A stretch of DNA of 64,000 nt from Thermoanaerobaculia bacterium (lineage in GTDB: Bacteria > Acidobacteriota > Thermoanaerobaculia > Multivoradales > JAGPDF01): contig JBFWYP010000018.1 of NCBI GenBank assembly GCA_050186295.1, forward strand, positions 1,590 to 65,589, read 5' to 3'. A model generated the notes under the pieces. The model was not told where the DNA came from. It made no database searches and worked only from the letters and a program-made list of their open reading frames with translations. This document shows positions 3,934-52,515 of the stretch, piece by piece (position 1 is the stretch's first letter; each line of letters starts with the position of its first letter). The translations under genes and the position numbers were made by a program.

Positions 3934-5565
3934 TCAGCGCTGCCCGGGCCGCCGCCTCTCCAGAGCCAGGGCCGCGGCGCCGGTCGCCGCGACCAGGAGG
4001 GCGAAGAGTCCGAGGGCGAAGGGCCCGGCGGCCACGACGCCGGGCATCCGCAGGAGACCCGTCACGTCGCCGCCCGGCAGACCGTTGAGCGCCAGGTAGA
4101 GACCGGTCAGCTGGAGCACCGCGAACAGCTTGGCGCCACCGGTGAGCGCCCCGCAGGCGGCAGCGAAGCAGCCGAGGAGCGCCGCCCCGACGACGGCGCT
4201 CGCCGCGGCGAGCGGAGCGGAAGAGGCCAGTCGGAGAGCCGTGGGCGCGACGAGCAGCACGGCGAAGCCGGACATGCCGGCACTTTTCCAGAGCACGAGC
4301 GAGAGCGGCAGACCCGGCTGAGCGCGCAGCAGCGCGGTCGTGCCGCTCTGCGCTTCGCGCGCTCCCGCCACCGCGAGGATCGGCGTCGCCGCGAGCAGCA
4401 GGAGCAGACGCAGCGGAATCCCCGGCACGACCGCAGGAGCCAGGGCCAGCGCCAGCACCAGCCAGCGCCAGCGCCCGAGCACTTCGAAGGTGAGCCGGAT
4501 CTCCGCGGCGATCGAACGCAGGGTCGACGGGGCGAGGACGACCGGAGGCAGCGCCGCCAGGCCGCGGTGGTGCACGGTCGTCGCGTCGACCGGCCCGCGC
4601 TCCGCCGCGTGCCGCGCCGGCACGATCGCCGGCTCCGGACCGCCTCTCTTGCCGCGCCGGCGGGAGGGGTCGAAGCGATCGAAGAACAGCACCGCCAGCC
4701 CGAACGGCAGGAGCGCCTGCAGCAGCGTGCCGAGTCGTTGCAGGCGGAAGCCGGCGGAAAGCTCGACGCCCGGCCACTCGACCTTCTCGGGCGCCTCGCT
4801 GTGGACGACGAGTCCGCTCGACACCGTGCCGCGCGCGGCCTCGGGGAGCGACTCCGTGACCAGTCGGGTGAGGCCGGCGATCCCCGTCGGGTCCCAGACG
4901 ATCGGGCGCGCGACTCGCGCTTCGGCCGGGGCCCGCGTCTCGCGAACGATCGTCGTCACCACCGGCAGCGCCAGCATCAGGCCGACGAAGAGGAAGTACC
5001 AGGCCACCCATCCGCCCGCTCCCCGCAGACCGGGCGTGACGTCGAAGAGGATCGCCAGCGTGGCCACGAGCAACGCCATCGGCAGGGCGGTCCAGATCGC
5101 CGGCTCGACGAGATGGAGCGGCTCGATCGGCGCGTCGCTGCGCACGGCGAGAGTCAGGATGCCGGTGAGGACGCCGAAGCCGGCGAGGGTCGCGAGATAG
5201 GCGGCGTGCGCCAGACTCTTGCCCGCGAGGTAGGTCCAGGAAGGCAGCGGCGTCGCTGCCAGGATCGGTCCCAGACCGCGGCGCGCATCGCCCTTCACGG
5301 TGCCCGCGATCAGGTAGAAGCCGACCAGTCCGAGGATCACCCCGCAGAGCTGGCCGCAGGCGATGCCGACCAGCCGGGAGGTGAGGAACGGCGTCTGCAG
5401 CTGGCCGTCGATCGTCCGCCAGGACAGGTTGACCGAGTGGCCGTCCGCCGAAGGGAGCCAGAACCAGAAGCCGGCGACGAAAGCGGCGAGCGCCACCCAG
5501 GTGGCGCCCGAACGGAGTCGCAGACGGAACTCGGTCCCGACCAGGGCCGCGAGCTCCTGCCTCAC
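3934..5565 (-). CDS. ABC transporter permease-like membrane protein
   Basis: Many TM segments, ATPLPSWTYLAGK motif; overlaps the upstream ATPase stop by 4 nt. Confidence 0.75.
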   Translation of the reverse strand: MRQELAALVGTEFRLRLRSGATWVALAAFVAGFWFWLPSADGHSVNLSWRTIDGQLQTPFLTSRLVGIACGQLCGVILGLVGFYLIAGTVKGDARRGLGPILAATPLPSWTYLAGKSLAHAAYLATLAGFGVLTGILTLAVRSDAPIEPLHLVEPAIWTALPMALLVATLAILFDVTPGLRGAGGWVAWYFLFVGLMLALPVVTTIVRETRAPAEARVARPIVWDPTGIAGLTRLVTESLPEAARGTVSSGLVVHSEAPEKVEWPGVELSAGFRLQRLGTLLQALLPFGLAVLFFDRFDPSRRRGKRGGPEPAIVPARHAAERGPVDATTVHHRGLAALPPVVLAPSTLRSIAAEIRLTFEVLGRWRWLVLALALAPAVVPGIPLRLLLLLAATPILAVAGAREAQSGTTALLRAQPGLPLSLVLWKSAGMSGFAVLLVAPTALRLASSAPLAAASAVVGAALLGCFAAACGALTGGAKLFAVLQLTGLYLALNGLPGGDVTGLLRMPGVVAAGPFALGLFALLVAATGAAALALERRRPGQR

Positions 5566-6446
5566 GCCGCGCTCCCCTCGCGGCGCAGCCAGAGATAGGC
5601 GTCTTCGAGCGTCGGATCGACCGCGACCGCGCCAGCCGGCGGCTCGCCGGCGCAGACGAAGCGCACGTGAGCGCCGTCGGCACGCTGCACCAGGCTCGAG
5701 ACATGGACGCGTTGCTGCAGCTCGGCGAGCCGGTCGGAAGCGACGCGGAGCGAGAAGACGTGCCCGAGCGCGCGCGCCAGCAGCTCTTCGGGGGTCGCCA
5801 CGGCGAGCAGCCGGCCCTCGCGCAGCACGGCGAGAGTCGTCGCCACCGCTTCGACGTCGGAGACGATGTGCGTCGAGAGGATCACGACGCGGTCGTGGGC
5901 GATCTCCGCCAGGAGGTTGCGGAACCGCACCCGTTCGTCCGGGTCGAGGCCGACGGTCGGCTCGTCGACGATCAGCAGCTGCGGCTCGCCCAGCAGCGCC
6001 TGCGCGATGCCGACCCGCTGCCGCATGCCGCCCGAGAAGCCGCCGAGCGGCCGCTGCGCGGCGGCGTGCAGGTTGACCAGCTCGAGCAGCCCCTCGACGC
6101 GCGCGGCGAGCGACCGACCGCCGAGGCCCTTCAGCCGTCCGAGGTAGAGCAGGAACTCGGTCGCTGTGAGGCGTTCGTAGATGCCGAAGTCCTGCGGCAG
6201 GTAGCCGAGCTCGCGCCGCACCGCCAGCGGATCGCGCACGCCGTCCCGCCCGCGCCAGCGGAACGTGCCGGAGGTCGGTCGCGTGACCGTCGCCAGGATC
6301 GACATCAGGGTGCTCTTTCCCGCTCCGTTCGCCCCGAGGAGGCCGACCACCCCCGGTCCCAGACGCAGGTGGACGTCGGCGAGCGCAGTGTGGCCGTTGC
6401 GGTAGGTCTTGGTGAGGGCTTCGATCTCGAGGACGGTCTCCGACAT
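5562..6446 (-). CDS. ABC transporter ATP-binding protein
   Basis: Walker A GANGAGKST, signature FSGGMRQR, Walker B LLIVDEPT, H-loop STH; start reassigned to MSETVLEI. Confidence 0.92.
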   Translation of the reverse strand: MSETVLEIEALTKTYRNGHTALADVHLRLGPGVVGLLGANGAGKSTLMSILATVTRPTSGTFRWRGRDGVRDPLAVRRELGYLPQDFGIYERLTATEFLLYLGRLKGLGGRSLAARVEGLLELVNLHAAAQRPLGGFSGGMRQRVGIAQALLGEPQLLIVDEPTVGLDPDERVRFRNLLAEIAHDRVVILSTHIVSDVEAVATTLAVLREGRLLAVATPEELLARALGHVFSLRVASDRLAELQQRVHVSSLVQRADGAHVRFVCAGEPPAGAVAVDPTLEDAYLWLRREGSAA

Positions 6447-6498
6447 CCGGAGCCCTACGTCGTCCGGTCCGTACGGTTTCGCGGCAACGGGAATCTCC

Positions 6499-7368
6499 TC
6501 AGGGAGTGAGCAGCAGGAGTCGTTCGTCGGCGAGCTCGACGTCGATCGGCAGCGACGGAACGAACGGGTCGCCATCGTACTGCAGCGGCTGTCCGGCCGG
6601 AGAGAGGACGCGCACGCGGCCGACACGGCGGATCTCGACGTCGGCGCGCGCCGCGTGCCGGCCGCGCACCAGGTCGATGGCGAAGCCGAAGGCGTCGCGA
6701 CGGCGATGGCCGCGGAAGAGGAGGATCTCGAGCTGACGGTCGTCGGCGCGCGCGCCGGGCACGATCTCGTAGCCGCCGGCGTACTGGGCGAGATTGCTCA
6801 CCACGAAGCCGGTCGCGGTGAGCCGCTCGCCGTCGACCTCGAGCCCGATCTCCGGAAAGCGGTAGCGCCGCCACTCGCGGAAGCCGGCGATGGCGATCGC
6901 CCCTTTGCCGAGCCGCTTCTTGAGGCGCGGGTCGGCGGCCGCCATGATCGTCGCGTCGAGGCCACCGGAAACCTGCATCAGGAACGGCTGGTCGCCGCAG
7001 CGGCCGAGGTCGGTCGCGTGCGGCGTCGCCGCCGCCAGGAGGCGCGCCGCCGCCACCGGATCCATCGGCAGTCCGAGCGACAGCGCGACGACGTTGGTGG
7101 TCCCGCCGGGCAGGGCGCCGACCGCCACGCCGCTCCCGGCGAGGACGCTCGCCACCACGCGCAGCGTCCCGTCGCCGCCGAGGACGAAGAGCGCGTCGAG
7201 CGCTTCGCTCCTCGCCCGGGCGGCGAGCGTGCGGCAGTGCTCCGGACTGTCGGTCGGATCGAATCGCAGGTCGAACGCCCCGGACAGCGCGGCGCGGATC
7301 GCTTCCAGCCGCTTGGCGCGGTGCGCGCCGGCGCGCGGGTTGAAGAGCAGCGCGGCGCGGCGCTTCAA
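6499..7368 (-). CDS. Diacylglycerol kinase (DagK/YegS) family lipid kinase
   Basis: NPRAG, GGDGT, LPGGTTN, QYDGDP motifs. Confidence 0.9.
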   Translation of the reverse strand: MKRRAALLFNPRAGAHRAKRLEAIRAALSGAFDLRFDPTDSPEHCRTLAARARSEALDALFVLGGDGTLRVVASVLAGSGVAVGALPGGTTNVVALSLGLPMDPVAAARLLAAATPHATDLGRCGDQPFLMQVSGGLDATIMAAADPRLKKRLGKGAIAIAGFREWRRYRFPEIGLEVDGERLTATGFVVSNLAQYAGGYEIVPGARADDRQLEILLFRGHRRRDAFGFAIDLVRGRHAARADVEIRRVGRVRVLSPAGQPLQYDGDPFVPSLPIDVELADERLLLLTP

Positions 7369-8915
7369 AGGGCGACCGCCGGCGCGGCGACGAGCGCAGC
7401 GAATTCTTGTTCCCTCTGGCGCGCGTGCTCGAGCGCCTTCCGGAAGCGCTCCTCCCCGGCGATCGACCCGAGAGCGGGCGCGCTCTCGAAGCAGCGCGAA
7501 CAGAAGAATCCCTGGGCGACGGCGCGCTCGACTTCGGTCAGCGCCAGCTCACGATCTCCCGCCGCGGCGAGGAGCTCGGCGATCCGTGCGGTGAGCTCGC
7601 CGTCGGTCGCCAGGAGTCGCGTGCGTTGCAGCGCGAGCTGACCGAGCAGGAGACGACCGTCGGTCGCGCGCCCCTCGATCACCGCCACCAGTCCCTCGGC
7701 GAGACGTGCGAACGGGTCGCTCGGCCGTTCGCGGAACGCCGGCGCGAGCTCCTGGAGTGCCGCCGACGAGCGGCCACCACGCCACAGCGCGTAGCCGCGG
7801 TAGAAGCGGACGAGTGGCGTCGAAGCCTCGGGCAACAGGGCGAGAAAACGGTCGACGTCGCCGAGGTAGAGCAGCGCGTTCGGTGTCCACCCTTCGCGCG
7901 CGAAGAAGGTGGCGTCCGTCGACGCCACCGCGTCGATCCGCGTGCGCGCCGCCTCGAGCGCACCGCCGTAGGTCGCAGCGTACGCCGCGAGGAAGGCGAT
8001 CTGCGGCGACTCGACGGTGCGCGGTGCGGCGAGCGCCCAGGCCTCCTCCGCTCTCCCGGTTTCGACGAGGACGGCGGCCTTGAGGGCGAGCGCCTGGGTG
8101 CTCCCGGGTGCGAGCTCGAGCGCCCGTTCGGCGGCGCGGATGGCATCGGCGTAGGACGCCCCCGACTCGCCGCACGACGAGACCAGGTTGTACTGCGCCC
8201 AGCCGTACTGCTCCCAGGCCTCGGCGAACGTCGGGGCGAGCGCCAGCGCCCGCTCGAGATCGGCGATCGCCTGGTGCGCGACGCAGCTTCCTCCCGCGAG
8301 CGCCTGCTGCGCCGAGGAATAGAGCCGGAACGCCTCGGGCGGAACCGCGGCGGCCGCGCTGCGGCCCGGCGCGGGACGCAGTTTCGGCCAGAGTGCGAAC
8401 GCGGCGACCACCATCAGGAGCCCGAGGAGGACGAGCTCCCGGCGCGGCGATCGTTGCCGCGACTCCGGCCCGACCGGCTCGGCGGACGCCGCAACGCTCG
8501 TCGGCGGCGCCGCGACCGGCTCGGCCGACGCCGTCTTCTCCGCGGCCTCCACGCCACCTGCCTCCCACACTTCGACCGGAGCGATCAGACGATAGCCGCG
8601 ACGAGCGATCGTCTGGATGTAGCGCGGCGCCTTCGGATCGTCCCCGAACGCCTTGCGGAGCTCGGAGACCGCCCGCGTGACCACCGCCTCGACCACGAAC
8701 TTCCCCTCCCAGACCTCCGCCAGGAGCTCCTCCTGGCTCACCGTTTCGCCGCGGCGGCGGGCGAGCACCAGGAGAACTTCCATGATCTTCGGTTCGAGGT
8801 GGCTCTCGCCGCCCGCCCCGGTGAGGGTGTCGAGGCCGGGATCGGCGACGAAGTCGCCGATGCGGAGCGGCGGGACGTTTCCGGAGGCAGGCATATCGGA
8901 GGGCCGGGTGCGCAT
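7365..8915 (-). CDS. CadC/ToxR-like membrane-anchored winged-helix regulator with TPR region
   Basis: LEPKIMEVL..VSQEELLAEVW..VTRAVSELRKAFGDD..YIQTIARRGYRL, one TM helix, helical TPR-like C-terminus. Confidence 0.85.
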   Translation of the reverse strand: MRTRPSDMPASGNVPPLRIGDFVADPGLDTLTGAGGESHLEPKIMEVLLVLARRRGETVSQEELLAEVWEGKFVVEAVVTRAVSELRKAFGDDPKAPRYIQTIARRGYRLIAPVEVWEAGGVEAAEKTASAEPVAAPPTSVAASAEPVGPESRQRSPRRELVLLGLLMVVAAFALWPKLRPAPGRSAAAAVPPEAFRLYSSAQQALAGGSCVAHQAIADLERALALAPTFAEAWEQYGWAQYNLVSSCGESGASYADAIRAAERALELAPGSTQALALKAAVLVETGRAEEAWALAAPRTVESPQIAFLAAYAATYGGALEAARTRIDAVASTDATFFAREGWTPNALLYLGDVDRFLALLPEASTPLVRFYRGYALWRGGRSSAALQELAPAFRERPSDPFARLAEGLVAVIEGRATDGRLLLGQLALQRTRLLATDGELTARIAELLAAAGDRELALTEVERAVAQGFFCSRCFESAPALGSIAGEERFRKALEHARQREQEFAALVAAPAVAL

Positions 8916-8978
8916 TGTACGGCGCGGCGGAGGTCCGGCATCGCCCGCCGAATGAACTGTTTCACAGGAAAACCGCTC

Positions 8979-9017
8979 CCTTCGAGCGCCCTCAGCGTCC
9001 CCTCCGCGGTTCCTCAG
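8979..9017 (+). promoter_or_regulatory. 11-bp-phased direct repeats, candidate winged-helix binding sites
   Basis: CCTTCG 8979, CCTCAG 8990, CCTCCG 9001, CCTCAG 9012 in the divergent intergenic region. Confidence 0.45.
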
Positions 9018-9096
9018 GACCGGAAGGAGCGCTCGGCGGGAGATTCACTCCCCGCCGGGTTCCCGGATTCGGCGGCTCTCGCGAAAGGAGCGTGCT

Positions 9097-11391
9097 GTGA
9101 AGCGATCGAACTGGTGCTGCGGATTCTGGATCTTCTGGCTCGCCGTCTCCGGACTCGAGGCGCAGGTCACGACGCAGCTCGTCGAGCGTCACGACTTCGA
9201 GATCTTCGACTGGTCGGACGACGGCGCCACCAGCGGCGGAGAGACGATGCCGGTCCGGGGTGCCGACTCCTACCTCCGGCTGGTCCACGATCCCTTTCGC
9301 GAAGGAGAGCTCTGCCAGACGAGCCGGCACTGGTTCCGCGACCCGATCGACGCGTCCAATCTCGGCGAGGTCCTCGGCTTCACCTTCTCGTACCGGGTCC
9401 GCGGATCCCACGACGGGGGCCCGGGAACCTCCGCCGGACTGAGGGTCGATCCGCTGGTCCGCCTGGGAGAGAGCGGACGATCCTGGTACCTCGGACCGAG
9501 CTTCGGCTACATCCCGCCGGGAGAAGGAGGCCAGTACGTGTCGTCGGGAGCGCTCGCGATCCCCGGCTACGGAACGGTCTCCGACGGTCGCTCCTACACC
9601 TTCGGCGTCGAGTTCTTCAGCTGCGCCACGGAGCGGATCCGCGCCGTCCGCGCCGACCTCGATGATTTCGTCGTCGACGTCCACACCGCAAACGCCCCGC
9701 GCCTCGACGGAGTGACGTTCGACCTGCGACGCTACTTCCAGCGCCCCAACGGCAGCTGGGTCAACGGGTTCGGCGAAGGGTCGGAAAGCACTTCGAAGGT
9801 CGAGATCCATCTGCTCCGGCGCGGCGACCTCTCCGTTCCGACGAGCCACGCGCTGCGGATCGAGACCCACCCGTTCCCCACGAGAACCCGTACCGTCACC
9901 TGGCCGGCCGGGGTCTCCGAGCAGAGTCTGACGGAGTTCGTCCTCTCGCCGGATCTCTGCTCCTACACTCTCCTCACCGCGACCCTCGAGGAGACTCCGG
10001 GAGGAATCCCGATCCTCCAACCCGCGAGAACGAAGACCTACGTGATCGACCGCCGCTTCGGCAGCAACGGAGCCGTCGATCCGTACGAGCACGCCGGGAT
10101 CTACTGTCTCTGGAACATCCTCGTGCAGCTCTTCCGTTCGCAAGAGGTCATTCCGTGCAATCCGGTCGACCCGCAACTCGCTCCACTCGATGGAGCACCC
10201 CCTCCGTCCGACGCCTCCCTCGACTCCATGACCGCCACGCTGCGCGCCTTTCGCGACCAGGTGATGGCGAGCTCCGAAGCCGGCCGCTACTACGTCAACC
10301 TCTACTACACCTGGTCGAAGGACGCGATCGTCGCCGCCTTCCGCCATCCCGCGATCTTCGCCGAGGCGATGGCCACCGCCCCCGCCTGGATCCAGGGCGC
10401 CGGATCGCTGGTTGCGGGCCAGGGGTCGACGACGTCGGTCTCGGGCCCGATGCTGAACGGTCTCAGACGGGTCCTCGACGGCCTGAAGGCCGCCGGCTCT
10501 CCGGCCCTCGCCCGGGCGATCGCCACCGAAGAGTCGCGACTCGGTCTGGCGAGCTGGGAGGGGCTCTCCTTCGACGCGCTCTGGCAGCGGGTTCTCACGG
10601 CCGGAGGGGCCGCGGCGTGCACTCCGTCCGCGAACTCCCTCTGCCTCAACCATGGACGCTATCGGGTCGAAGCCGACTTCCAGCTCGCGGACGGATCGAC
10701 CGCCCGAGCGCACGCTGTCCCGCTCACCCCGGAAAGCGGCTACTTCTGGTTCTTCGAGCCGGAGAACGTGGAGCTGCTGACCAAAGTTCTCGACGGATGC
10801 GGCACGAACGACCACGTCTGGCAGTACAGCGCCGGACTGACCAATCTCGCGGTCGATCTCACCTTCACCGACACCCTCACCGGCCGTGGCAGGACCTACC
10901 AGAGCGAGCCGGCGACGGCGTTCGCGCCGCTCCTCGACTCCGCGTTCCTCGAATGCGCTTCCCCGGCCGGATCGGAGAGTCCGCTCGACGGCGACTTCCG
11001 CTCCGGCACCGCGACTCTCTCCTCCACCGCCGGCGGCAGCTGCACGCCGGGGCCGGAGGCGCTCTGCCTGGGCGATCGCTTCCGCGTCACCGCCACCTGG
11101 CGGACCGCCGCCGGAGCCAGCGGCTCCGCCCATGCCGCCCCGCTCACCGCCGACACCGGGACGTTCTGGTTCTTCTCCCCCGCCAACGTCGAGCTCGTGG
11201 TCAAGTCGATCGACGCCTGCGGACTCGCCGGCTTCGAGAACTACTGGCTGTTCGCCGCCGGCACGACCGACGTCGAAGTGAACCTCGTCGTCGAAGACAC
11301 CGTCGCGCACGTCACGAAGAGCTACTTCCGTCCTCTCGGGACCCCGTTCGCCCCCGAGCTCGACACCATCGGCTTCGCCACCTGCCCCTGA
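9097..11391 (+). CDS. Large secreted protein with an internal CFI-box-like segment and two tandem Cys-bounded C-terminal domains
   Basis: AGGAG SD, signal peptide, LRAFRD..GRYYVNLYY, two copies of C.P....LCL..R(Y/F)RV...G.FWFF...NVEL..K..D.C. Confidence 0.75.
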   Translation: MKRSNWCCGFWIFWLAVSGLEAQVTTQLVERHDFEIFDWSDDGATSGGETMPVRGADSYLRLVHDPFREGELCQTSRHWFRDPIDASNLGEVLGFTFSYRVRGSHDGGPGTSAGLRVDPLVRLGESGRSWYLGPSFGYIPPGEGGQYVSSGALAIPGYGTVSDGRSYTFGVEFFSCATERIRAVRADLDDFVVDVHTANAPRLDGVTFDLRRYFQRPNGSWVNGFGEGSESTSKVEIHLLRRGDLSVPTSHALRIETHPFPTRTRTVTWPAGVSEQSLTEFVLSPDLCSYTLLTATLEETPGGIPILQPARTKTYVIDRRFGSNGAVDPYEHAGIYCLWNILVQLFRSQEVIPCNPVDPQLAPLDGAPPPSDASLDSMTATLRAFRDQVMASSEAGRYYVNLYYTWSKDAIVAAFRHPAIFAEAMATAPAWIQGAGSLVAGQGSTTSVSGPMLNGLRRVLDGLKAAGSPALARAIATEESRLGLASWEGLSFDALWQRVLTAGGAAACTPSANSLCLNHGRYRVEADFQLADGSTARAHAVPLTPESGYFWFFEPENVELLTKVLDGCGTNDHVWQYSAGLTNLAVDLTFTDTLTGRGRTYQSEPATAFAPLLDSAFLECASPAGSESPLDGDFRSGTATLSSTAGGSCTPGPEALCLGDRFRVTATWRTAAGASGSAHAAPLTADTGTFWFFSPANVELVVKSIDACGLAGFENYWLFAAGTTDVEVNLVVEDTVAHVTKSYFRPLGTPFAPELDTIGFATCP

Positions 11392-44114: not shown

Positions 44115-44615
44115 TTGGCGCTCGAGGCTCTGATCGGCAGCGACGACGAGAGCCGGATGCGAAGGGCGCTCGAGCTGGCCGCGGAAGCGGCCGGGGCCGG
44201 AGAGGTTCCGGTGGGAGCGCTGGTCGTTTCACCGGCCGGGGAGGTCGTCGGCCGCGGGCGCAACCGCCGCGAGGAAGACCAGGATCCGACGGCACACGCC
44301 GAGCTCCTGGCGATCCGCGAAGCGGCGGCGGTGCTCGGCTCCTGGCGGCTCGTGGACTGCGATCTCTACGTGACGCTCGAGCCGTGCGCGATGTGCGCCG
44401 GAGCGATCGTGCTCTCCCGTGTGCGCCGGGTGGTCTTCGGCGCCGCGGATCCGAAGGCCGGTTTCTGCGGTTCGCTGGGGAACCTGGTCGAGGACGAACG
44501 GCTGAACCACCGCGTGACCCTGGTCCCCGGTGTGCTGGCAGAAGAGTGCGGAGAGCTCCTCAGGAGCTTCTTCGTCGGCCTTCGGGAACGAAGGCCCGGA
44601 TCTTTGAAAGTCTAG
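44115..44615 (+). CDS. tadA: tRNA adenosine(34) deaminase
   Basis: GEVPVGA, DPTAHAE, TLEPCAMC, LNH; likely TTG start 8 nt after TAGACT. Confidence 0.93.
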   Translation: MALEALIGSDDESRMRRALELAAEAAGAGEVPVGALVVSPAGEVVGRGRNRREEDQDPTAHAELLAIREAAAVLGSWRLVDCDLYVTLEPCAMCAGAIVLSRVRRVVFGAADPKAGFCGSLGNLVEDERLNHRVTLVPGVLAEECGELLRSFFVGLRERRPGSLKV

Positions 44616-44623
44616 ATTTTTCG

Positions 44624-44715
<92 letters not shown>

Positions 44716-44735
44716 AAAATCCTGCAGGAACCTGA

Positions 44736-44825
<90 letters not shown>

Positions 44826-44838
44826 TTCTGCGCATCCC

Positions 44839-44873
44839 GAGCCCCCGGCCGTCCGCCGGGGGCTCTTCCTTTT
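44839..44873 (+). terminator. Rho-independent terminator after the tRNA pair
   Basis: GAGCCCCCGGC-CGTCC-GCCGGGGGCTC followed by TTCCTTTT. Confidence 0.85.
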
Positions 44874-44892
44874 GCGGCGATCTCCGGGACGC

Positions 44893-46368
44893 TCAGTGCT
44901 CTCCGGCCGCGGCGGACGACTCGGGCTCGACGTTGAACAGGAACTCCTCGCCCGGCAGCGCCGGCGGGACGGCGAAGCGCTTCCGCATGGCGTCGAATTC
45001 GGCCATCAGCAGGGGCGACTTCTCCATCGCGGCGGCGAGCTCGTTGACCCGGCTCTGCAGCGCGGCCACCCGCTCCGGATTCGCGGCGGCCAGGTTGTTC
45101 GCCTCCGCGGGATCGTGCGCGATGTCGAAGAGCTCGACGAGCGACGGAAGCGGTGCGCGCCAGACGAGCTTCCAGTCGCCCTGGCGGAGCCCGGCGCGGA
45201 ACGACTCGATGTTGTAGACGAGCTCGGTGCGCGGCGACGGGGCGCCGCTGCGGATCGTCGACCAGACGTCCAGGCCGTCGAGCGGCTTGGCCTTGGCAGT
45301 GGACGCACCGGCGAGCTTCGCGAGCGTCGGATACATGTCGACGACGTGGATCATGCCGTCGACGACGCCCGGTTCGACGTGGCCCGGCCAGTTCACCAGC
45401 GCGGCCACCCGCGTTCCCCCCTCGTAGAGCGAGCCCTTGCCGCCCCGGTACGGTCCGTTGTCGCAGGGGATGATCACCTTCGACATGTCGAGCTCGCCGG
45501 CGAACATGGCGTTCCGCGTGCCGCCGTTGTCGCTCTGGAAGACGACGATCGTGTCGTCGCGCATCCCCCGCTTGCCGAGCGCCTCGAGCACGCGACCGAT
45601 CTGGTCGTCCATGGCGGTGATGGCGGCGGCGTAGGCGCGCCGGCTGGGATCGGCGATCGCGGCGTAGCGGTCGAGGTACTCCTGCGGCGCCTGGTACGGC
45701 GTGTGCGGCGCGTTGAACGCGAGATAGAGGAAGAGCGGTCTGGCGACGTCGTGGCGCGTGATCCGTGCCACGGCGTCGTTGCCGAGGAGCGTCGTCGTGT
45801 AGCCCGGCTCGCGTACGACCTCGTTGTCGCGGTACCAGTCGACGACGCCGTGCTGCTCGTGGGTGAAGTAGTCGAGCTCACCGATCAGCGGGCCGTACTG
45901 CGAATCGAAACCGCGCTGCCGCGGCCAGAACTTCGGATCGGCGTGTCCGAGATGCCACTTGCCGACGATCGCCGTCTCGTAGCCGGCCTCGCGGAGCGCC
46001 TGCGGCAGCAGCCACTCGTCGGTCGGCAGACCGTAGGTGTGTCCGGACGGGATGACCAGCGTCTGCAGGCCGTAGCGGAACGGATAGCGGCCGGTCATCA
46101 GCGCCGCGCGGGTCGGCGTGCACATCGGCTGGGCGTAGAACTGCTCGAGCCGGGCGCCGGTCGCCGCCAGACGGTCGAGATTCGGCGTGCGGATGTCCGA
46201 GCCGTGGAAGCCGACGTCCTTCCAGCCCTGGTCGTCGGAGACGATGTAGAGGATGTTGGGTGCCTTGGCCGCCTTCGCCGCCTTGGCGGCGGCGCGGCTC
46301 GGCGCCCCCGGCAGGAACAGCGCGGCGAAGAGGAGAACGGACGCGAGCGGACGAACGGATCGAAACAT
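44893..46368 (-). CDS. Arylsulfatase B-like sulfatase, exported
   Basis: Signal peptide, PNIL..SDDQG, CTPTRAALMTG (formylglycine site), GKWHLG, SDNG. Confidence 0.93.
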   Translation of the reverse strand: MFRSVRPLASVLLFAALFLPGAPSRAAAKAAKAAKAPNILYIVSDDQGWKDVGFHGSDIRTPNLDRLAATGARLEQFYAQPMCTPTRAALMTGRYPFRYGLQTLVIPSGHTYGLPTDEWLLPQALREAGYETAIVGKWHLGHADPKFWPRQRGFDSQYGPLIGELDYFTHEQHGVVDWYRDNEVVREPGYTTTLLGNDAVARITRHDVARPLFLYLAFNAPHTPYQAPQEYLDRYAAIADPSRRAYAAAITAMDDQIGRVLEALGKRGMRDDTIVVFQSDNGGTRNAMFAGELDMSKVIIPCDNGPYRGGKGSLYEGGTRVAALVNWPGHVEPGVVDGMIHVVDMYPTLAKLAGASTAKAKPLDGLDVWSTIRSGAPSPRTELVYNIESFRAGLRQGDWKLVWRAPLPSLVELFDIAHDPAEANNLAAANPERVAALQSRVNELAAAMEKSPLLMAEFDAMRKRFAVPPALPGEEFLFNVEPESSAAAGEH

Positions 46369-46546: not shown

Positions 46547-47716
46547 GTGTCCGAGGAGCGACAGTACGAACCCGGAGGGGGGGAGATCGGCTACGACCTG
46601 CCGGCGCGAGCCGGAATGACGCTCGCCGAGGTGCAGACCCCCAGCCTCGTCGTCGATCTCGACGCCCTCGAACGGAACGTCGCGAAGCTCGGCGCGTTCG
46701 TGCGGGAGCGCGGGATCCGCCACCGCGCCCACGCCAAGATGCACCGCTCGGTCGACGTCGCGCGCCTGCAGATCGAGCGCGGCGGCGCCTGCGGCCTCTG
46801 CTGCCAGAAGGTCTCCGAGGCGGAGTGCTTCGCCCGCGCCGGCTTCCGCGACATCCTGGTCTCGCACGAGGTGCGCGATCCGCTGAAGATCGATCGCCTC
46901 GCCCGCCTGCCGCTCCTGGGGGCGCGGACGATCGTCCTCGTCGACGATCCGGCGAACGTCGCCGAGCTCTCGGCGGCCGCCAAGGCGCACGGCACGACGA
47001 TCGAATGCCTCGTCGAGCTCGACTGCGGCGCCGGGCTCTGCGGTGTCGCGACGACCGCCGAGGTGGTGGCGCTGGCACAGGCGATCGCAGCGGCCGCCGG
47101 ACTCGTCTTCGCCGGCATCCAGGCCTACCAGGGAAAGATGCAGCACCTCGGTCCGTTCGAGGAGCGGCGGGCGGCGAGCGCGGCCGCCGCAGCGCGGGCG
47201 CGCGAAGTGGTGACGGCGCTCGCCGCGGCCGGACTCTCCTGCGGGATCGTCGGCGGTGGCGGGACCGGGAGCTACCGGTTCGACGCCGACTCGGGCGTCT
47301 ACGACGAGCTCCAGTGCGGCTCGTACGCCTTCCTCGACGACGAGTACGGGCGGATCCTCGACGCCGAGGGCCGCCGCCTCGACGAGCGCGAGTGGGAGCA
47401 TGCGCTCTTCCTCCTCACCTCCGTGGTCAGCCGGGCGAAGGACGGGAGCGCGGTCTGCGATGCCGGCCTCAAGGTCTGCTCGTTCGACGCCGGGCCGCCG
47501 GTGGTCTTCGGCCGCGACGACGTCGCCTACGTGCGCTGGGCCGACGAGCACGGACTGCTCGACGATCCGGGCGGCGTCCTCCGCGTGGGCGAGAAGCTGC
47601 GTCTGGTTCCCGGCCACTGCGATCCGACCTGCAATCTGCACGACTGGTACGTCGCCGTCCGCGGCGGGACCGTCGAGGCGCTCTGGCCGGTGAGCGCGCG
47701 CGGCAAGTCGCTCTAG
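46547..47716 (+). CDS. bhcC: DSD1-family PLP enzyme, 3-hydroxy-D-aspartate aldolase-like
   Basis: GYD.PA..GM...E.QTP.L..DLDALERN, H.KMH.SVDV, CCQKVSEAE, GGGTGS, LQCGSY, GHCDPTCN; recalled similarity to Paracoccus BhcC. Confidence 0.75.
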   Translation: MSEERQYEPGGGEIGYDLPARAGMTLAEVQTPSLVVDLDALERNVAKLGAFVRERGIRHRAHAKMHRSVDVARLQIERGGACGLCCQKVSEAECFARAGFRDILVSHEVRDPLKIDRLARLPLLGARTIVLVDDPANVAELSAAAKAHGTTIECLVELDCGAGLCGVATTAEVVALAQAIAAAAGLVFAGIQAYQGKMQHLGPFEERRAASAAAAARAREVVTALAAAGLSCGIVGGGGTGSYRFDADSGVYDELQCGSYAFLDDEYGRILDAEGRRLDEREWEHALFLLTSVVSRAKDGSAVCDAGLKVCSFDAGPPVVFGRDDVAYVRWADEHGLLDDPGGVLRVGEKLRLVPGHCDPTCNLHDWYVAVRGGTVEALWPVSARGKSL

Positions 47717-47743
47717 CCGCTGGCCGCGATCCGTGCGCCGGGC

Positions 47744-48286
47744 TCACCGGTGCGGCGGGCGCGAGCGGGTTCCGGAGCTCTGCGACAGGGCGTCCTGCAG
47801 GCGCTTCCCTTTGGCCCGCGACTCCCGCGCCAGCCGCGCCTTGAAGGCCGCGACACGGCGCCGCACGCCGGCATCGCTCGCACCGAGGATCTGCACCGCG
47901 AGGATCCCCGCGTTCCGTCCGCCGCCGATCGCGACCGTCGCCACCGGCACACCCCCCGGCATCTGTACGATCGACAACAGCGAGTCGAGTCCCTTGAGCG
48001 TCGAGCTCTCCACCGGGACGCCGATGACCGGCAACGGAGTGAGGCTGGCGACCATCCCCGGCAGGTGCGCGGCGCCGCCCGCTCCGGCGATGACGACGCG
48101 CAGACCGCGCCCGGCGGCGCTCCTGGCGTAGCGCATCATGTCCTCCGGGGTGCGATGCGCCGAGAGGACGCGTACCTCGGCTTCCAGGCCGAAGTCGGCG
48201 CAGACCTCGGCCGCCGGCTGCATGGTCGGCCAGTCCGAGTCACTTCCCATCACGATCCCGATCAGGGGACGCTCGCTCCGTTTCAT
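47744..48286 (-). CDS. purE: N5-CAIR mutase (class I PurE)
   Basis: [39 protein letters not shown]. Confidence 0.96.
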
Positions 48287-49500
48287 TCTTCGCTCCCGAA
48301 CTGGATTTCGTCCGCGCATCGTCGGGCCAGGGCTTCGGCTTCGGCCACCGTCGCTCCGACCGCGGTCACGTGGCCGAGCTTGCGGCCGGGATGACTCGTC
48401 GCCTTGCCGTAGATGTGCACATGGGCGCCCGGGACCGCCAGGGCCCGCTCGAGACCGGTCACGTGGCCGGGGCCACGGCGGGCGCCGAGGAGGTTGATCA
48501 TGACCGCCGCCGGCTCCCGCATGGCGGGCGAGCCGAGGGGCCAGTCGAACACGGCACGGACGTGGTTCTCGAACTGCGAGCAGACGCAGGCGTCGAGCGT
48601 GTAATGGCCGGAGTTGTGGACGCGGGGCGCCAGCTCGTTGATGGTGACCTCACCCTCCGCGGTCAGGAACATCTCGACGCCGAAGCTGCCGACGGCTCCG
48701 ACGGCGGCGACCGCCCGCTCCGCGACGTCGACCGCGCGCCCGGCGATCGTCCCGGAGACCGCGGCCGGCGCGCGAACGACGTGACAGATGTGGTCGCGCT
48801 GTACGGTCTCCACCAGCGGATAGGTCGCCACGGAACCGTCGCGCGTGCGGGTGATGATGACGGCCAGCTCGGTCGCGAAGGGACAGTAGGCTTCGACGTA
48901 GAGGGCGCGGCCCTCGTCCCCTCCCAGGCGTTGCCAGGCCGCCTCGACATCCGACGGATCCCGGAGCGTCGCGTTGCCCTTGCCGTCGTAGCCGTTGCGG
49001 CGCGCCTTCAGTACCAGCGGCCAACCGAACTCCCGGGCGATGGCGACGACCTCGTCGGGCGAGCTCGCGGCGCGGAACGGCGAGACGGGAAGTCCGGCGG
49101 CGGAGAGAGTCTCCTTCTGGGTCAGCTTGTCCTGCACGAGAGCGATGGTCGCGGCCCCGGGTCGCAGGTGGTGGCCGCGCTCCTCGAGAAGCGCCAGCTT
49201 CGCCGCGTCGATGAACTCGTTCTCCAGCGTCACGGCGTCGGCCAGCGTGGCCAGCGCCAGCAGGTCTTCGGCCCGATCCCAGTCGCCCACCAGGGCCCGG
49301 TGCGCCAGCGACATCGCCGGGCTCAGGGAGTTGCGCTCGAGGACGAAGACCTCGCACCCGAGCTCGAGCGCTGCCATGGCGGTCATCCGCGCGAGCTGCC
49401 CGCCGCCGACGATGCCGAGGCGGGAGCGATTGCGCCGGGTGAGCGCGCTCGTGCGCACTTCGGATTCCGTGGTCTCGTGCATGGCCGCGGTGCCGGCCAC
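48283..49500 (-). CDS. purK: N5-CAIR synthetase
   Basis: [39 protein letters not shown]. Confidence 0.96.
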
Positions 49501-49830
49501 TCAGCGGGCGCGGGTTCGCGCCACGGTCCGACCGCGCTTGCGGGCAGCCGAGGCCGGGCCGATCAGGGAGAGAAGGGCCGCGACCTGGTGGTGCGCCTCG
49601 ATGGGGTGGCGCAGGGGCAGGAGGTCGTTCACCTCGTAGAGATTGCGGCGCCCCTGGCGGGTCACCGCGAGGTAGCCGGCTTCGACCAGGTCGGCGACGA
49701 TCCGCTGCGCCGCGCGCTCGGTGATCCCGACCCTGGTGGCGACGTCGCGCAGGCGGACCAGGGGATCCGCGGCGATGCACAGAAGCACGTGGCCGTAGTT
49801 GGTGAGAAAGGTCCAGCGGTCCGCTGCCAT
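49501..49830 (-). CDS. Small winged-helix (MarR/ArsR-like) transcription regulator
   Basis: WTFLTNYGHVL..RLRDVA..VGITERAAQRIV.DL.EAGY..GRRN.Y; its stop abuts the purK start. Confidence 0.85.
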   Translation of the reverse strand: MAADRWTFLTNYGHVLLCIAADPLVRLRDVATRVGITERAAQRIVADLVEAGYLAVTRQGRRNLYEVNDLLPLRHPIEAHHQVAALLSLIGPASAARKRGRTVARTRAR

Positions 49831-49836
49831 CGCGCA

Positions 49837-49903
49837 ATGGTACTTACTCGAATCGCGAATTTCAACACATGTCTTGCAATACAGGACACACGTAGCGTAT
49901 GTT
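49837..49903. promoter_or_regulatory. Back-to-back promoters with candidate operator
   Basis: Minus strand: TTGAAA-N17-TACCAT (49865-49837). Plus strand: TTGCAA-N18-TATGTT (49874-49903). Imperfect palindrome TGTCTTG-CAATA-CAGGACA at 49870-49888. Confidence 0.6.
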
Positions 49904-49948
49904 TCCGCGGACGGACTTCTCGCCAACGGCCACGGAGCTCTGAAACCG

Positions 49949-50908
49949 ATGCTCGACGTTCTCAAAGCCAACATGCTTTCGCCGATCGTGCTGGCCTTCG
50001 CGCTGGGGATCGCGGCGCGCCTGGTGCGCAGCGAGCTGCGGCTGCCCAAGGACCTCTACACGGCGCTCTCGATCTACCTGCTGTTCGCTCTCGGGCTCAA
50101 GGGCGGAGTGGAGCTGAGTCACGCCTCCCTCGGCGCCATCGCCGCCCCGGCGGCGGTGACGCTCCTGCTCGGCTGCATCACGCCGATCAGCTCGTATCTC
50201 GTCCTGCGGCATCTCGGACGCTTCAGCGACGCCGACTCGGCCGCCATCGCGGCGCACTACGGATCGGTCTCGGCCGTCACCTTCATCGCCGCCCAGACCT
50301 TCGTCACCTCGATGGGAGAGGTGCCGGAGGGGTTCATGCCCACCCTGCTCACGCTGCTCGAGAGCCCCGGTATCCACATCGCTCTCGCCATCGGCGCCCT
50401 GAAAGTGAGCAGTCAACGGTCGGCGCGGCAGACGCTGCACGAGATCGCGACGGGGCGCACGATGATCCTGCTCGTCGGTGGCCTGCTCGTCGGACTGCTG
50501 ATGGGCGGCAAGGGCTGGGAGTCGATCGCGCCGTTCTTCGACGGCGGCTTCAAGGGCGCGCTCACGCTGTTCCTCCTGGAGATGGGCATCGTCGCCGCCG
50601 AGCGGATCGGTGACCTGCGCAAGGTCGGTCCGTTTCTCCTCGGCTTCGGCGTCCTGATGCCGCTCCTCCACGGCGCCCTGGGCGCGGGGCTGGGCAGGCT
50701 GGCCGGACTTTCGGTGGGCGGCAGCACGATGCTGGCGGCGATGGCGGCCAGCGCCTCCTACATCGCGGCACCGCCGGCGGCGCGTCTGAACCTGCCGACC
50801 GCGAACCCGACTTACTATCTGACCGCGTCGCTCGCGATCACGTTTCCGTTCAACGTGGCCGTGGGTATCCCCGTGTACTACTGGGTCGCCAGGCTGTTCG
50901 AGAGCTGA
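49949..50908 (+). CDS. sbtA: Sodium-dependent bicarbonate transport family permease (SbtA/DUF897)
   Basis: LSIYLL..GLKGG, AAHYGSVSAVTF, LESP, FLLEMG, ASASYIAAP, ITFPFN. Confidence 0.92.
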   Translation: MLDVLKANMLSPIVLAFALGIAARLVRSELRLPKDLYTALSIYLLFALGLKGGVELSHASLGAIAAPAAVTLLLGCITPISSYLVLRHLGRFSDADSAAIAAHYGSVSAVTFIAAQTFVTSMGEVPEGFMPTLLTLLESPGIHIALAIGALKVSSQRSARQTLHEIATGRTMILLVGGLLVGLLMGGKGWESIAPFFDGGFKGALTLFLLEMGIVAAERIGDLRKVGPFLLGFGVLMPLLHGALGAGLGRLAGLSVGGSTMLAAMAASASYIAAPPAARLNLPTANPTYYLTASLAITFPFNVAVGIPVYYWVARLFES

Positions 50909-50920
50909 GGAGAGAGAGTG

Positions 50921-51229
50921 ATGAGCCAGCACGCGATGAAGCTGATGGTGATCGTGGTCGAGAGTGTCCTGATGGAGAGGGTGCTCGCCGATCTCAAGCG
51001 CCTCGGCGCCACCGGATACACGATCACGGACGCCCGCGGCGGGGGCTCGCGCGGACTTCGCGTCGGCGAAGTGCCGGGCGACAACAAGCGCATCGAGGTG
51101 CTCATGGACGACGAGACCGCCGGCACCATGCTGGAGCTGCTGTCCGAGCGCTACTTCCCCAGCTACGCCATCGCCGCCTGGGTCAGCGACGTCGTGGTGG
51201 TCCGCGAAGGGAAGTATCTCGGTCGCTAG
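50921..51229 (+). CDS. sbtB: PII-like regulator SbtB
   Basis: GATGYTI..ARG.GSRG, N.RIEVL, V.V.R..KY; directly downstream of sbtA. Confidence 0.88.
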   Translation: MSQHAMKLMVIVVESVLMERVLADLKRLGATGYTITDARGGGSRGLRVGEVPGDNKRIEVLMDDETAGTMLELLSERYFPSYAIAAWVSDVVVVREGKYLGR

Positions 51230-52515
51230 TCGCTCTTCGCCGCCTTGCCGTCGAGCTGCTCGATCGTCGCGATCGACGGCGGGCGCTCCTTCTGCAGGCG
51301 CTTCGCGACCGCCTCGGCTTCGCGCAGGACCCGCAGGACGTTCTCGCCGGCGAGCTTCTTCAGGTCGCCGTCGCTCCAGCCGCGGCGGACGAGCTCGGCG
51401 AAGAGCGCGGGGTACTTCGAAACGTCCTCGAGCCCCTGGACGACGTCGTCGCCCGCCCCCCAGAAGTCGCCGGCGATGCCGATGTGGTCGACCCCCGCGA
51501 CCTTGCGCACGTGCTCGACCTGGTCGGCGACCTGGGCGACGGTGGCGCGCGGCGGCGCGCCGTGCTCGGCGACGTACTGCGTGTACAGGCGCTGGTAGTC
51601 GGCGTCGACGGCGATCCCGGCGGTCTGCTTCTCGAACGGCTCGGACCAGTCGCGGACCTCCTGCGAGACGAACTCGGGGATGAAGGTGACCATCAGCACG
51701 CCGCCGTTCTTGCGCAGCCGCGCGATCACCTGGTCGGGAGCGTTGCGCGGGTGGTCGCTCAGGGCGCGCGCGCAGTTGTGCGAGAAGACGACCGGCGCCG
51801 CGCTCACGTCGAGCGCGTCGTTCGCCGTCGCCGGCGAGACGTGCGAGATGTCGACCAGCATGCCGAGGCGGTTCATCTCGCGCACCACCTCCTCGCCGAA
51901 CGGCGTCAGGCCGTCGTGCTTCGGCGTGTCGAGCGCCGCGTCGGCCCAGTCGAGGGTGACGTTGTGGGTCAGGGTGAGGTAGCGCGCGCCGAGGTCGTGG
52001 TAGGCGCGCAGCGCGCCGAGCGAGTTCTCGATCACGTGCCCGCCTTCCATGCCGAGGAGCGAGGCGATCTTCCCCGCGCGGTGGATGCGCACGACGTCGT
52101 CGGCGGTGAGCGCGAGCTCGAGCGCCTCGGGGTACCTGGCGATCATCCGCTTCGCGATGTCGATCTGCTCGAGCTGGGTCCTGGCGAATCCGGACGGGAT
52201 CTCCCCCGGCACGTAGACCGACCAGAACTGCGCGCCCACTCCGCCGGCGCGGAGGCGCGCCAGGTCGGTCTCGTGCGGCGCCGGCTTGCGGAGGTCGTAT
52301 TTCTCGACGTCCCTCGGTGCCTCTTTCCACTCGCGGATCACCCAGGGGAGATCGTTGTGCCCGTCGACCAGGATCGTCGAGGCGAGGAGCTCCCGGGCGT
52401 GCTGAAGACGGCGTGCCGCCGCGTCGTCCCTCTCCGCGGCGAGGAGGCTTCCGACGGCGAAGAGCGCAGCGACTGCGGTGGCGGAAGGGAGGATCAGGCG
52501 GCTCCGGGAGCTCAT
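51226..52515 (-). CDS. M19 membrane dipeptidase, exported
   Basis: DGHNDLPW, GAQFWSVY, GMEGGH, TLTHN, EMNRLG..DISH, FSH. Confidence 0.92.
   Translation of the reverse strand: MSSRSRLILPSATAVAALFAVGSLLAAERDDAAARRLQHARELLASTILVDGHNDLPWVIREWKEAPRDVEKYDLRKPAPHETDLARLRAGGVGAQFWSVYVPGEIPSGFARTQLEQIDIAKRMIARYPEALELALTADDVVRIHRAGKIASLLGMEGGHVIENSLGALRAYHDLGARYLTLTHNVTLDWADAALDTPKHDGLTPFGEEVVREMNRLGMLVDISHVSPATANDALDVSAAPVVFSHNCARALSDHPRNAPDQVIARLRKNGGVLMVTFIPEFVSQEVRDWSEPFEKQTAGIAVDADYQRLYTQYVAEHGAPPRATVAQVADQVEHVRKVAGVDHIGIAGDFWGAGDDVVQGLEDVSKYPALFAELVRRGWSDGDLKKLAGENVLRVLREAEAVAKRLQKERPPSIATIEQLDGKAAKSD

Follow-up and report, generated by a model that had tools for sequence, protein, structure and literature searches.

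The question raised by this locus is why genes for the import of bicarbonate should stand back to back with genes for a carboxylation step of purine synthesis in a bacterium that is presumably a heterotroph. The locus lies in a 64,000-nt stretch of a Thermoanaerobaculia bacterium (GCA_050186295.1, contig JBFWYP010000018.1), called the window here, whose numbering is used for all coordinates given without a contig name. It is a unit of about 3.5 kb (47744-51229) made of two divergent strings, regulator-purK-purE on the minus strand and sbtA-sbtB on the plus strand, with a gap of 118 bp (49831-49948) between them. A sequence-only reading of this DNA had proposed that one winged-helix regulator co-induces bicarbonate uptake and the PurK route of carboxylation, and that it might sense inorganic carbon. 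Family profiles and the sequence itself uphold the five genes and the divergent gap on which that proposal was built. The explanation that we favor, with a probability of about 0.6, is that the unit is an accessory purine module for low inorganic carbon, in which the winged-helix protein represses sbtAB from a conserved site and tunes its own regulator-purK-purE transcript.

Two lines of evidence, a neighborhood census and a motif scan, establish that the joint arrangement of sbtAB, purKE and the regulator is more than chance. For the census, one genome per species was scanned, which yielded 594 confirmed loci of the regulator family; the best 80 were analyzed for genes within 6 kb, by tblastn with the window proteins and with neighbors that had been named by Pfam. 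purK or purE was found in 15 of these 80 loci, DabA or DabB in nine, SbtA in four and a beta-carbonic anhydrase in three; together these account for 26 loci, while a rough chance expectation, inferred from the five such genes in the 3.93-Mb host genome, is about 1.2 in 80. Two control queries, the M19 peptidase and the D-serine-dehydratase-like gene that flank the unit in the window, were found in none of the 80 loci. The expectation that relatives of the winged-helix protein would adjoin purK, sbtA, carbonic anhydrase and DabAB genes is thus borne out in several phyla. The arrangements differ from phylum to phylum: regulator-purK-purE is co-directional in Chloroflexota, purE-purK is divergent from the regulator in Myxococcota, and in Actinomycetota the arrangement is one with dabAB. 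Individual loci combine the same parts in other ways, such as sbtA-purK-purE divergent from the regulator (L059), dabB-dabA-purK-purE-regulator on a single strand (L101) and purE-purK-dabA-dabB beside the regulator (L049; L102 likewise joins purEK with dabAB). In the cultured species Cryobacterium ruanii (L093) the regulator is divergent from sbtA-sbtB, in a string sbtA-sbtB-terC. On a tree of 81 regulator proteins, which is poorly resolved, the association with pur genes needs at least eight changes.

The second line of evidence is a sequence in the gap that is conserved near regulator genes of other genomes. A matrix was built from the upstream regions of 12 such genes, gap-free over about 36 nt and with the window's own site left out; applied to both strands of the 3.93-Mb genome, it scored the window site at 33.0 bits and the next best site at 15.8. 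On the strand opposite the regulator, the consensus reads TTGCAA, an 18-nt spacer and TATATT, which is a sigma-70-type promoter, and the spacer holds an inverted repeat with the half-sites TACGAC and GTCGTA. The hexamer TTGCAA is self-complementary and doubles as the -35 element of the regulator in loci such as L031. Since the match in the window spans both TTGCAA and TATGTT, it covers the predicted sbtA promoter, and it ends 7 nt upstream of the -35 element of the regulator's own predicted promoter. Of the back-to-back promoters claimed by the sequence-only reading, the one on the minus strand was recovered by a sigma-70-like consensus scan of 47500-51500, where it is the only site listed and 0.1 would be expected from shuffles. 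The one on the plus strand falls below the threshold of that scan, yet its layout recurs in the reverse complement of the motif consensus, and it coincides with a sequence conserved in other genomes. From the minus-strand promoter, the regulator-purK-purE transcript would be nearly leaderless, with only about 7 nt ahead of the ATG at 49830.

The same motif recurs at other regulator loci and at partner genes. Eleven of the 68 loci that had not contributed to the matrix have sites of at least 20 bits in the 350 nt upstream of the regulator, and seven further sites of this strength lie elsewhere in regulator loci. One of these is at the 5′ edge of dabB, that is, at the head of the dab string, in L101 and L104 (close kin, and so one case), and two (L053 and L060) are upstream of terC-regulator strings. 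Among loci collected by their SbtA (see below), five of the eight with a regulator have a site of at least 18 bits, compared with one of the 72 without, and that one is at a contig end. The strict form of the inverted repeat is enriched approximately 16-fold upstream of regulator genes (12 occurrences in 15.9 kb versus 37 in 767 kb).

The linkage also appears when the census is begun from the other side. The 80 closest SbtA loci were taken from metagenome contigs, many of which are short. purK lies directly beside sbtA in 20 of them; the regulator is present in eight, and a carbonic-anhydrase-like gene in 11. The pairing of purKE with sbtA and with the regulator is thus found well beyond this genome; uniqueness to it would have spoken against the sequence-only reading. 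The nearest SbtA proteins (78-82% identity) are encoded in purE-purK-(carbonic anhydrase)-sbtA-sbtB strings, with the regulator divergent in three of them (L118, L120 and L121); in L120, a regulator faces purE-purK-sbtA-sbtB across a gap that contains the motif. The window PurK has its closest counterparts (60-67%) in purK-purE-sbtA strings, and the SbtA of those strings shares only about 52% identity with that of the window. The module looks mosaic; the window unit thus joins parts of two lineages, and this argues for repeated selection of the sbtA/purKE pairing. In six of the 80 SbtA loci, TerC is beside sbtA (L125, L151, L157, L161, L168 and L173), L125 having the order TerC-carbonic anhydrase-sbtA-sbtB. 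As a separate observation, an isocitrate dehydrogenase of the type described in the following paragraph adjoins purE in the SbtA loci L133, L138, L139 and L143.

The regulator family is not confined to genes of inorganic carbon; it also adjoins isocitrate dehydrogenase, TerC and unrelated genes. In the 54 regulator loci without purKE, Dab, Sbt or carbonic anhydrase, the 206 nearest open reading frames (ORFs) were scanned with Pfam and then followed up by tblastn. Isocitrate dehydrogenase with the bacterial C-terminal domain emerged in 16 of the 80 loci, usually divergent from the regulator and with the strongest motif sites, and L055, L064 and L087 combine it with carbonic anhydrase or purEK. 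This neighbor may fit a theme of carbon supply, as the enzyme releases CO2. TerC was found in nine of the 80 loci, and SulP permease, CNNM (two loci), Na/Ca exchangers (four), an Mrp-type antiporter and P-type ATPases in a few. Some further neighbors are recorded here for their own sake. TerC-family membrane proteins lie beside the regulator in L053, L058, L060, L092, L098 and L106. DUF6671 proteins lie near it in L042, L047, L061, L070, L096 and L097, directly following it in L047, L061 and L097. In three Actinomycetota loci (L079, L085 and L086) a sulfate-activation pair (PAPS_reduct and a GTP_EFTU-type subunit) is followed by the regulator and then by an asparaginase or Bax1-I gene, with no link to inorganic carbon. 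In a relative from the same order (L011/L112, G031:C36), a regulator homologue of 58% identity precedes an NDH-2-type oxidoreductase, with a RuBisCO-like protein (RuBisCO_large, 74 bits) encoded divergently.

If the unit serves purine synthesis when inorganic carbon is scarce, the distribution of its genes among relatives is of interest. The host assembly (G000) comprises 3.93 Mb in 69 contigs with 69.6% GC, and the named homologues of its DnaX carry the labels Thermoanaerobaculia, Holophagales or Acidobacteria. purK (with a single match above the cut-off), sbtA and the beta-carbonic anhydrase gene are each present once. A second purE, for which the sequence-only reading had suggested looking, is present on contig C4, where it stands alone and is 55% identical to the window copy. 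It belongs to a tight same-strand string (C4:130588-133973; L002, 132003-135461) of an isocitrate dehydrogenase with the bacterial C-terminal domain, an ORF read by eye as a Mur ligase, and purE, so that isocitrate dehydrogenase is two genes upstream of the stand-alone purE. PurE exceeds the cut-off in 39 of the 40 relatives, or in 40 of 41 genomes once the host is counted, and PurK does so in 11 of 40, including two of 16 in the same genus; Sbt_1 is found in two of 40 and the regulator in three of 40. Two true purE copies occur only in the host, G008 and G012 among the 41 genomes. Two members of the same genus show variants of the unit: in G008 the regulator stands divergent to purE-purK, and in G010 (C1:55000-70000, which is L115, approximately 4534-10086) a single strand carries dabB-dabA-purE-purK with neither regulator nor motif site. 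As few relatives carry PurK, Sbt_1 or the regulator, the importer, the regulator and purK-purE are accessory in a lineage that commonly has purE alone. A class I-like purE without purK is the condition in most genomes of the order, including the nearly closed G017 (one contig), G022 (two contigs) and G032 (one contig), which hints at a CO2-rich way of life. In PMC10880623, PurK is described as using bicarbonate, PurE alone as working only at very high inorganic carbon, and cyanobacterial purK mutants as needing high CO2.

The sequence-only reading had presumed the host to be a heterotroph; the only RuBisCO-family match in the genome is partial, at 82.9 bits. No DabA match was found in the host genome at the tblastn threshold used, and the sole DabB-candidate match lies among Mrp/Nuo-type antiporter-subunit matches on contig C3.

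The regulator itself, of 109 residues, is a member of a large, highly conserved and unnamed winged-helix family. It has at least 7999 relatives (clusters) of approximately 100 residues, with identities to it of 62-82% among the best 120 listed; source names in that listing include Acidobacteria/Bryobacterales, Thermoanaerobaculia, Micromonosporaceae, Solirubrobacteraceae and Pyxidicoccus. The family is marked by the motifs WTFLTN at the N-terminus and PLRHP.E at the C-terminus. In an alignment of 24 sequences the helix-turn-helix core is invariant, as are W6, T7, F8, N11 and H14 at the N-terminus and P72, R74, H75, P76 and E78 near the C-terminus, and Cys18 is nearly so. Among profiles, HTH_24 is above its cut-off, whereas MarR_2 falls short of its own (22.6 bits against 27), as does HTH_IclR (21.3 bits against 22), and the names in the Atlas for its matches are generic winged-helix names only. 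No LysR family was among its profile matches, and its 109 residues compare with approximately 300 for the helix-turn-helix and substrate-binding domain of a LysR protein. An AF2 model (pLDDT 72) has three helices, a beta wing and C-terminal helices; the folds nearest to it are SmtB/ArsR and MarR repressors, in matches that are weak and generic (E approximately 2e-3, TM approximately 0.5), and no significant sequence match was found among solved structures (best E 0.006).

The positions of the genes and control elements are collected in Table 1. The two strings are compact. The TGA of the regulator (49503-49501) is directly followed by the GTG of purK at 49500, as the sequence-only reading had it, and the overlap of purK and purE that it described amounts to 37 nt at the level of ORFs. 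The start of purE is more likely the ATG at 48286, which would give a 4-nt ATGA overlap with the purK stop (48286-48283) and has GGGAG just upstream. On the other strand, sbtB starts 9 nt after sbtA. On either side the unit ends at a convergent gene, one for a D-serine-dehydratase-like enzyme and the other for an M19 dipeptidase. The flanking genes scanned (the D-serine-dehydratase-like enzyme, a sulfatase and the M19 dipeptidase) include no pur gene, in line with the earlier statement that no others are nearby.

Table 1. Genes and predicted control elements of the divergent unit, in window coordinates.
Feature	Position	Strand	Basis
purE	47744-48319 (ORF)	-	AIRC 216.6 bits; TIGR01162 214.4 bits (cut-off 149.6)
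purK	48283-49500	-	TIGR01161 388.7 bits (cut-off 318.4); NF004679 394.8 bits (cut-off 326)
Winged-helix regulator gene (109 aa)	49501-49830	-	Translation; HTH_24 23.2 bits (cut-off 21.9)
Divergent control region (118 bp)	49831-49948		Sequence
Predicted regulator-purK-purE promoter: TTGAAA (49865-49860), 17-nt spacer, TACCAT (49842-49837)	49837-49865	-	Consensus scan
Weaker overlapping matrix matches over the regulator's own promoter	49844-49881		14.7 and 14.6 bits
Imperfect palindrome	49859-49880		Inverted-repeat scan
Conserved promoter/operator motif	49872-49903	-	33.0 bits, best match in genome
Predicted sbtA promoter: TTGCAA (49874-49879), 18-nt spacer, TATGTT (49898-49903)	49874-49903	+	Read by eye; below consensus-scan threshold
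sbtA	49949-50908	+	Sbt_1 (PF05982) 368.1 bits, profile positions 1-307 of 308
sbtB	50918-51229	+	P-II 67.1 bits; PII-like partner of SbtA

The products can be assigned by similarity. The sbtA product is probably an SbtA-family bicarbonate permease; it matches the solved SbtA of Synechocystis in two stretches (E 9.6e-29) and has 319 residues compared with 374. The SbtB product matches TTHA0516 at E 3e-24 and the solved chains of cyanobacterial SbtB at E 6e-9. Cyanobacterial SbtB carries a C-terminal redox loop motif; no Cys-containing C-terminal extension could be read by eye in the 103-residue product here, and this feature is not required in the wider PII-like family. The purK product is predicted to be an N5-CAIR synthetase that depends on ATP and bicarbonate, and the window PurE is predicted to be a class I-like N5-CAIR mutase. 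The nearest solved chains of both the window PurE and the copy on C4, which likewise scores above the curated cut-off, are N5-CAIR mutases, and for neither copy is there a solved chain named as class II PurE among the matches listed at E up to 1e-20.

The arrangement is also present in contigs of other sequencing runs from landfill, wastewater and sludge. These contigs are short; single ones of X3, X4 and X7 each reach from inside the regulator gene over the gap and into sbtA, and both outer junctions of the unit are spanned by further X4 contigs. A comparison with empty sites in relatives found, for the orthologues of the M19 flank gene (approximately 60% identity), no neighbors in common with the window within 1.5 kb. 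Elsewhere in the window, at 44367-45100, the summed contig depth is 10- to 50-fold above that of the surroundings in all four runs compared, a pattern expected of a highly conserved RNA gene.

Based on these observations, the favored explanation can be put as a sequence of steps. From their family membership, SbtA would import bicarbonate and SbtB would gate this import, PurK would spend ATP to load bicarbonate onto AIR, and the extra PurE would convert the PurK product to CAIR. From the position of the conserved site, the regulator would bind, probably as a dimer, at 49872-49903; this predicted site extends over the sbtA promoter from its -35 to its -10 element, and binding there would repress sbtAB. 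Acting from the same site, 7 nt upstream of its own -35 element, the regulator may also tune the regulator-purK-purE transcript. Our guess is that repression is lifted when inorganic carbon runs low. The signal might be bicarbonate or CO2 acting as co-repressor, which is the form we prefer, or alternatively a metabolite that reports carbon shortage. That the regulator senses bicarbonate or CO2 directly is a tentative proposal, and one we regard as less likely than not. In its full form, this proposal would make the family of approximately 100 residues the first dedicated transcription factor for inorganic carbon that is widespread among non-photosynthetic bacteria, with one conserved operator and a multi-phylum regulon, a possibility that we hold with considerable doubt. 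The regulon so conceived might, equally doubtfully, include import (SbtA and DabAB), hydration (beta-carbonic anhydrase), internal production of CO2 (isocitrate dehydrogenase) and the most bicarbonate-sensitive consumer (PurK-PurE).

Several findings weigh against the favored explanation. The 80 regulator loci were kept for their high scores and some are close kin, which means that their counts are not those of independent events, and in the tree only four of 78 branches are starred. Thirty-four of the 80 loci have no purKE, Dab, Sbt, carbonic anhydrase, isocitrate dehydrogenase or TerC neighbor, and many genes beside the family encode unrelated enzymes or transporters. As promoter hexamers form part of the matrix, some of its score is due to likeness to a promoter. 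The strict inverted repeat was not found in the window's own site, and no matrix site reaches 14 bits in the five Chloroflexota loci with purK or purE directly after the regulator (L038, L040, L044, L050 and L068). Neither the profile scan nor the AF2 model gave the regulator, at approximately 100 residues, a separate sensor or ligand domain. Finally, the GC content of the unit (0.65-0.73, compared with 0.696 for the genome) gives no mark of foreign origin.

Some of these points recur in the alternatives. One could hold that the regulator controls only itself or an unrelated target and came to lie beside sbtAB and purKE by co-transfer or chance, since the family is huge, more than a third of the loci analyzed lack a related neighbor and part of the motif is an ordinary promoter. 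However, the count of 26 loci compared with about one expected, the retention of the linkage while arrangements vary between phyla, and the placement of the motif over the predicted promoter of the partner gene (in L101 and L104 at the head of the dab string, away from the regulator gene) make this very unlikely. A different possibility, which we consider unlikely though less so, is that the signal comes from the purine pathway, the regulator reporting AIR, N5-CAIR or some other metabolite and the transporter genes being wired to purine demand. purK and purE are the commonest inorganic-carbon-related neighbors, Chloroflexota loci have the regulator and then purK/purE alone, and AIR would be expected to build up when bicarbonate is short. 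On the other hand, 11 of the 16 loci with Dab, Sbt or carbonic anhydrase have no pur gene within 6 kb, no other pur gene is among the neighbor clusters seen in at least three loci, and the isocitrate dehydrogenase and TerC neighbors would be left unexplained. To a similar degree it is unlikely that the family regulates ion, pH or metal homeostasis in the manner of ArsR/SmtB proteins, with the bicarbonate genes as part of an alkaline, sodium or metal response. The ion-handling neighbors keep this reading alive: TerC recurs beside both the regulator and sbtA, and the Na/Ca exchangers, CNNM, Mrp-type antiporter and P-type ATPases would find a place in it, as would the conserved His14 and His75, the nearly invariant Cys18 and the SmtB/ArsR and MarR folds nearest to the model. 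Yet those fold matches are generic, PurK/PurE and isocitrate dehydrogenase are not ion-handling genes, and near the regulator ion genes are fewer than carbon-related ones.

The favored explanation, that of an accessory low-inorganic-carbon purine module, can be placed beside systems that are already known. The cyanobacterial sbtA-sbtB genes, which are regulated by the LysR proteins NdhR/CcmR and CmpR, share with the window unit an SbtA-family permease, an adjacent PII-like SbtB and a dedicated transcription factor at the promoter, which here is predicted. In contrast to the LysR regulators there, the protein here is a 109-residue winged helix without a LysR domain, and its partner genes are purK and purE instead of a carbon-fixing apparatus, no full RuBisCO match having been found in the host. 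The E. coli purEK operon, which is under PurR, likewise has purE and purK adjacent and translationally coupled; here the order is purK-purE, and the pair is an accessory second set that comes with a regulator of its own and an importer of bicarbonate. The size of the regulator, its weakly matched fold and a palindromic site overlapping a promoter recall ArsR/SmtB and MarR repressors, but it has no significant sequence match to solved members, MarR_2 is below its cut-off, and the N- and C-terminal motifs are specific to its own family. DAB/MpsAB pumps are described, in a preprint (bioRxiv 10.64898/2026.09.08.750065), as supplying bicarbonate for anabolic carboxylations at air-level CO2 in autotrophs and heterotrophs. 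The supply of bicarbonate would be common to both, and DabA or DabB stands beside the regulator family in the nine loci counted above, although the host genome itself gave no DabA match.

In the open literature covered, with subscription journals and supplements outside its scope, there is no description of the regulator family, its site or purKE-transporter clusters, and search listings of work on DabA/DabB and regulators mention neither a small winged-helix regulator nor a purKE linkage. Regulator-controlled acquisition of inorganic carbon is itself known; the new elements are a regulator family and, in purine synthesis, a client pathway. To our knowledge, the means by which heterotrophic bacteria detect inorganic carbon and ensure its supply for anabolic carboxylations are poorly known, the regulators studied being LysR proteins of autotrophs. 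The present analysis puts forward a regulator family as a candidate, together with its predicted operator and a testable regulon across Acidobacteriota, Actinomycetota, Chloroflexota, Myxococcota and Planctomycetota, and as cultured carriers exist (for example, Cryobacterium ruanii), the idea is testable at the bench. In the favored explanation, purine synthesis, through PurK, would be a main client of the imported bicarbonate, and purK would be seen as an accessory low-CO2 gene in lineages that otherwise have purE alone. What the linkage points to is a carbon-supply switch of a new kind in non-photosynthetic bacteria.

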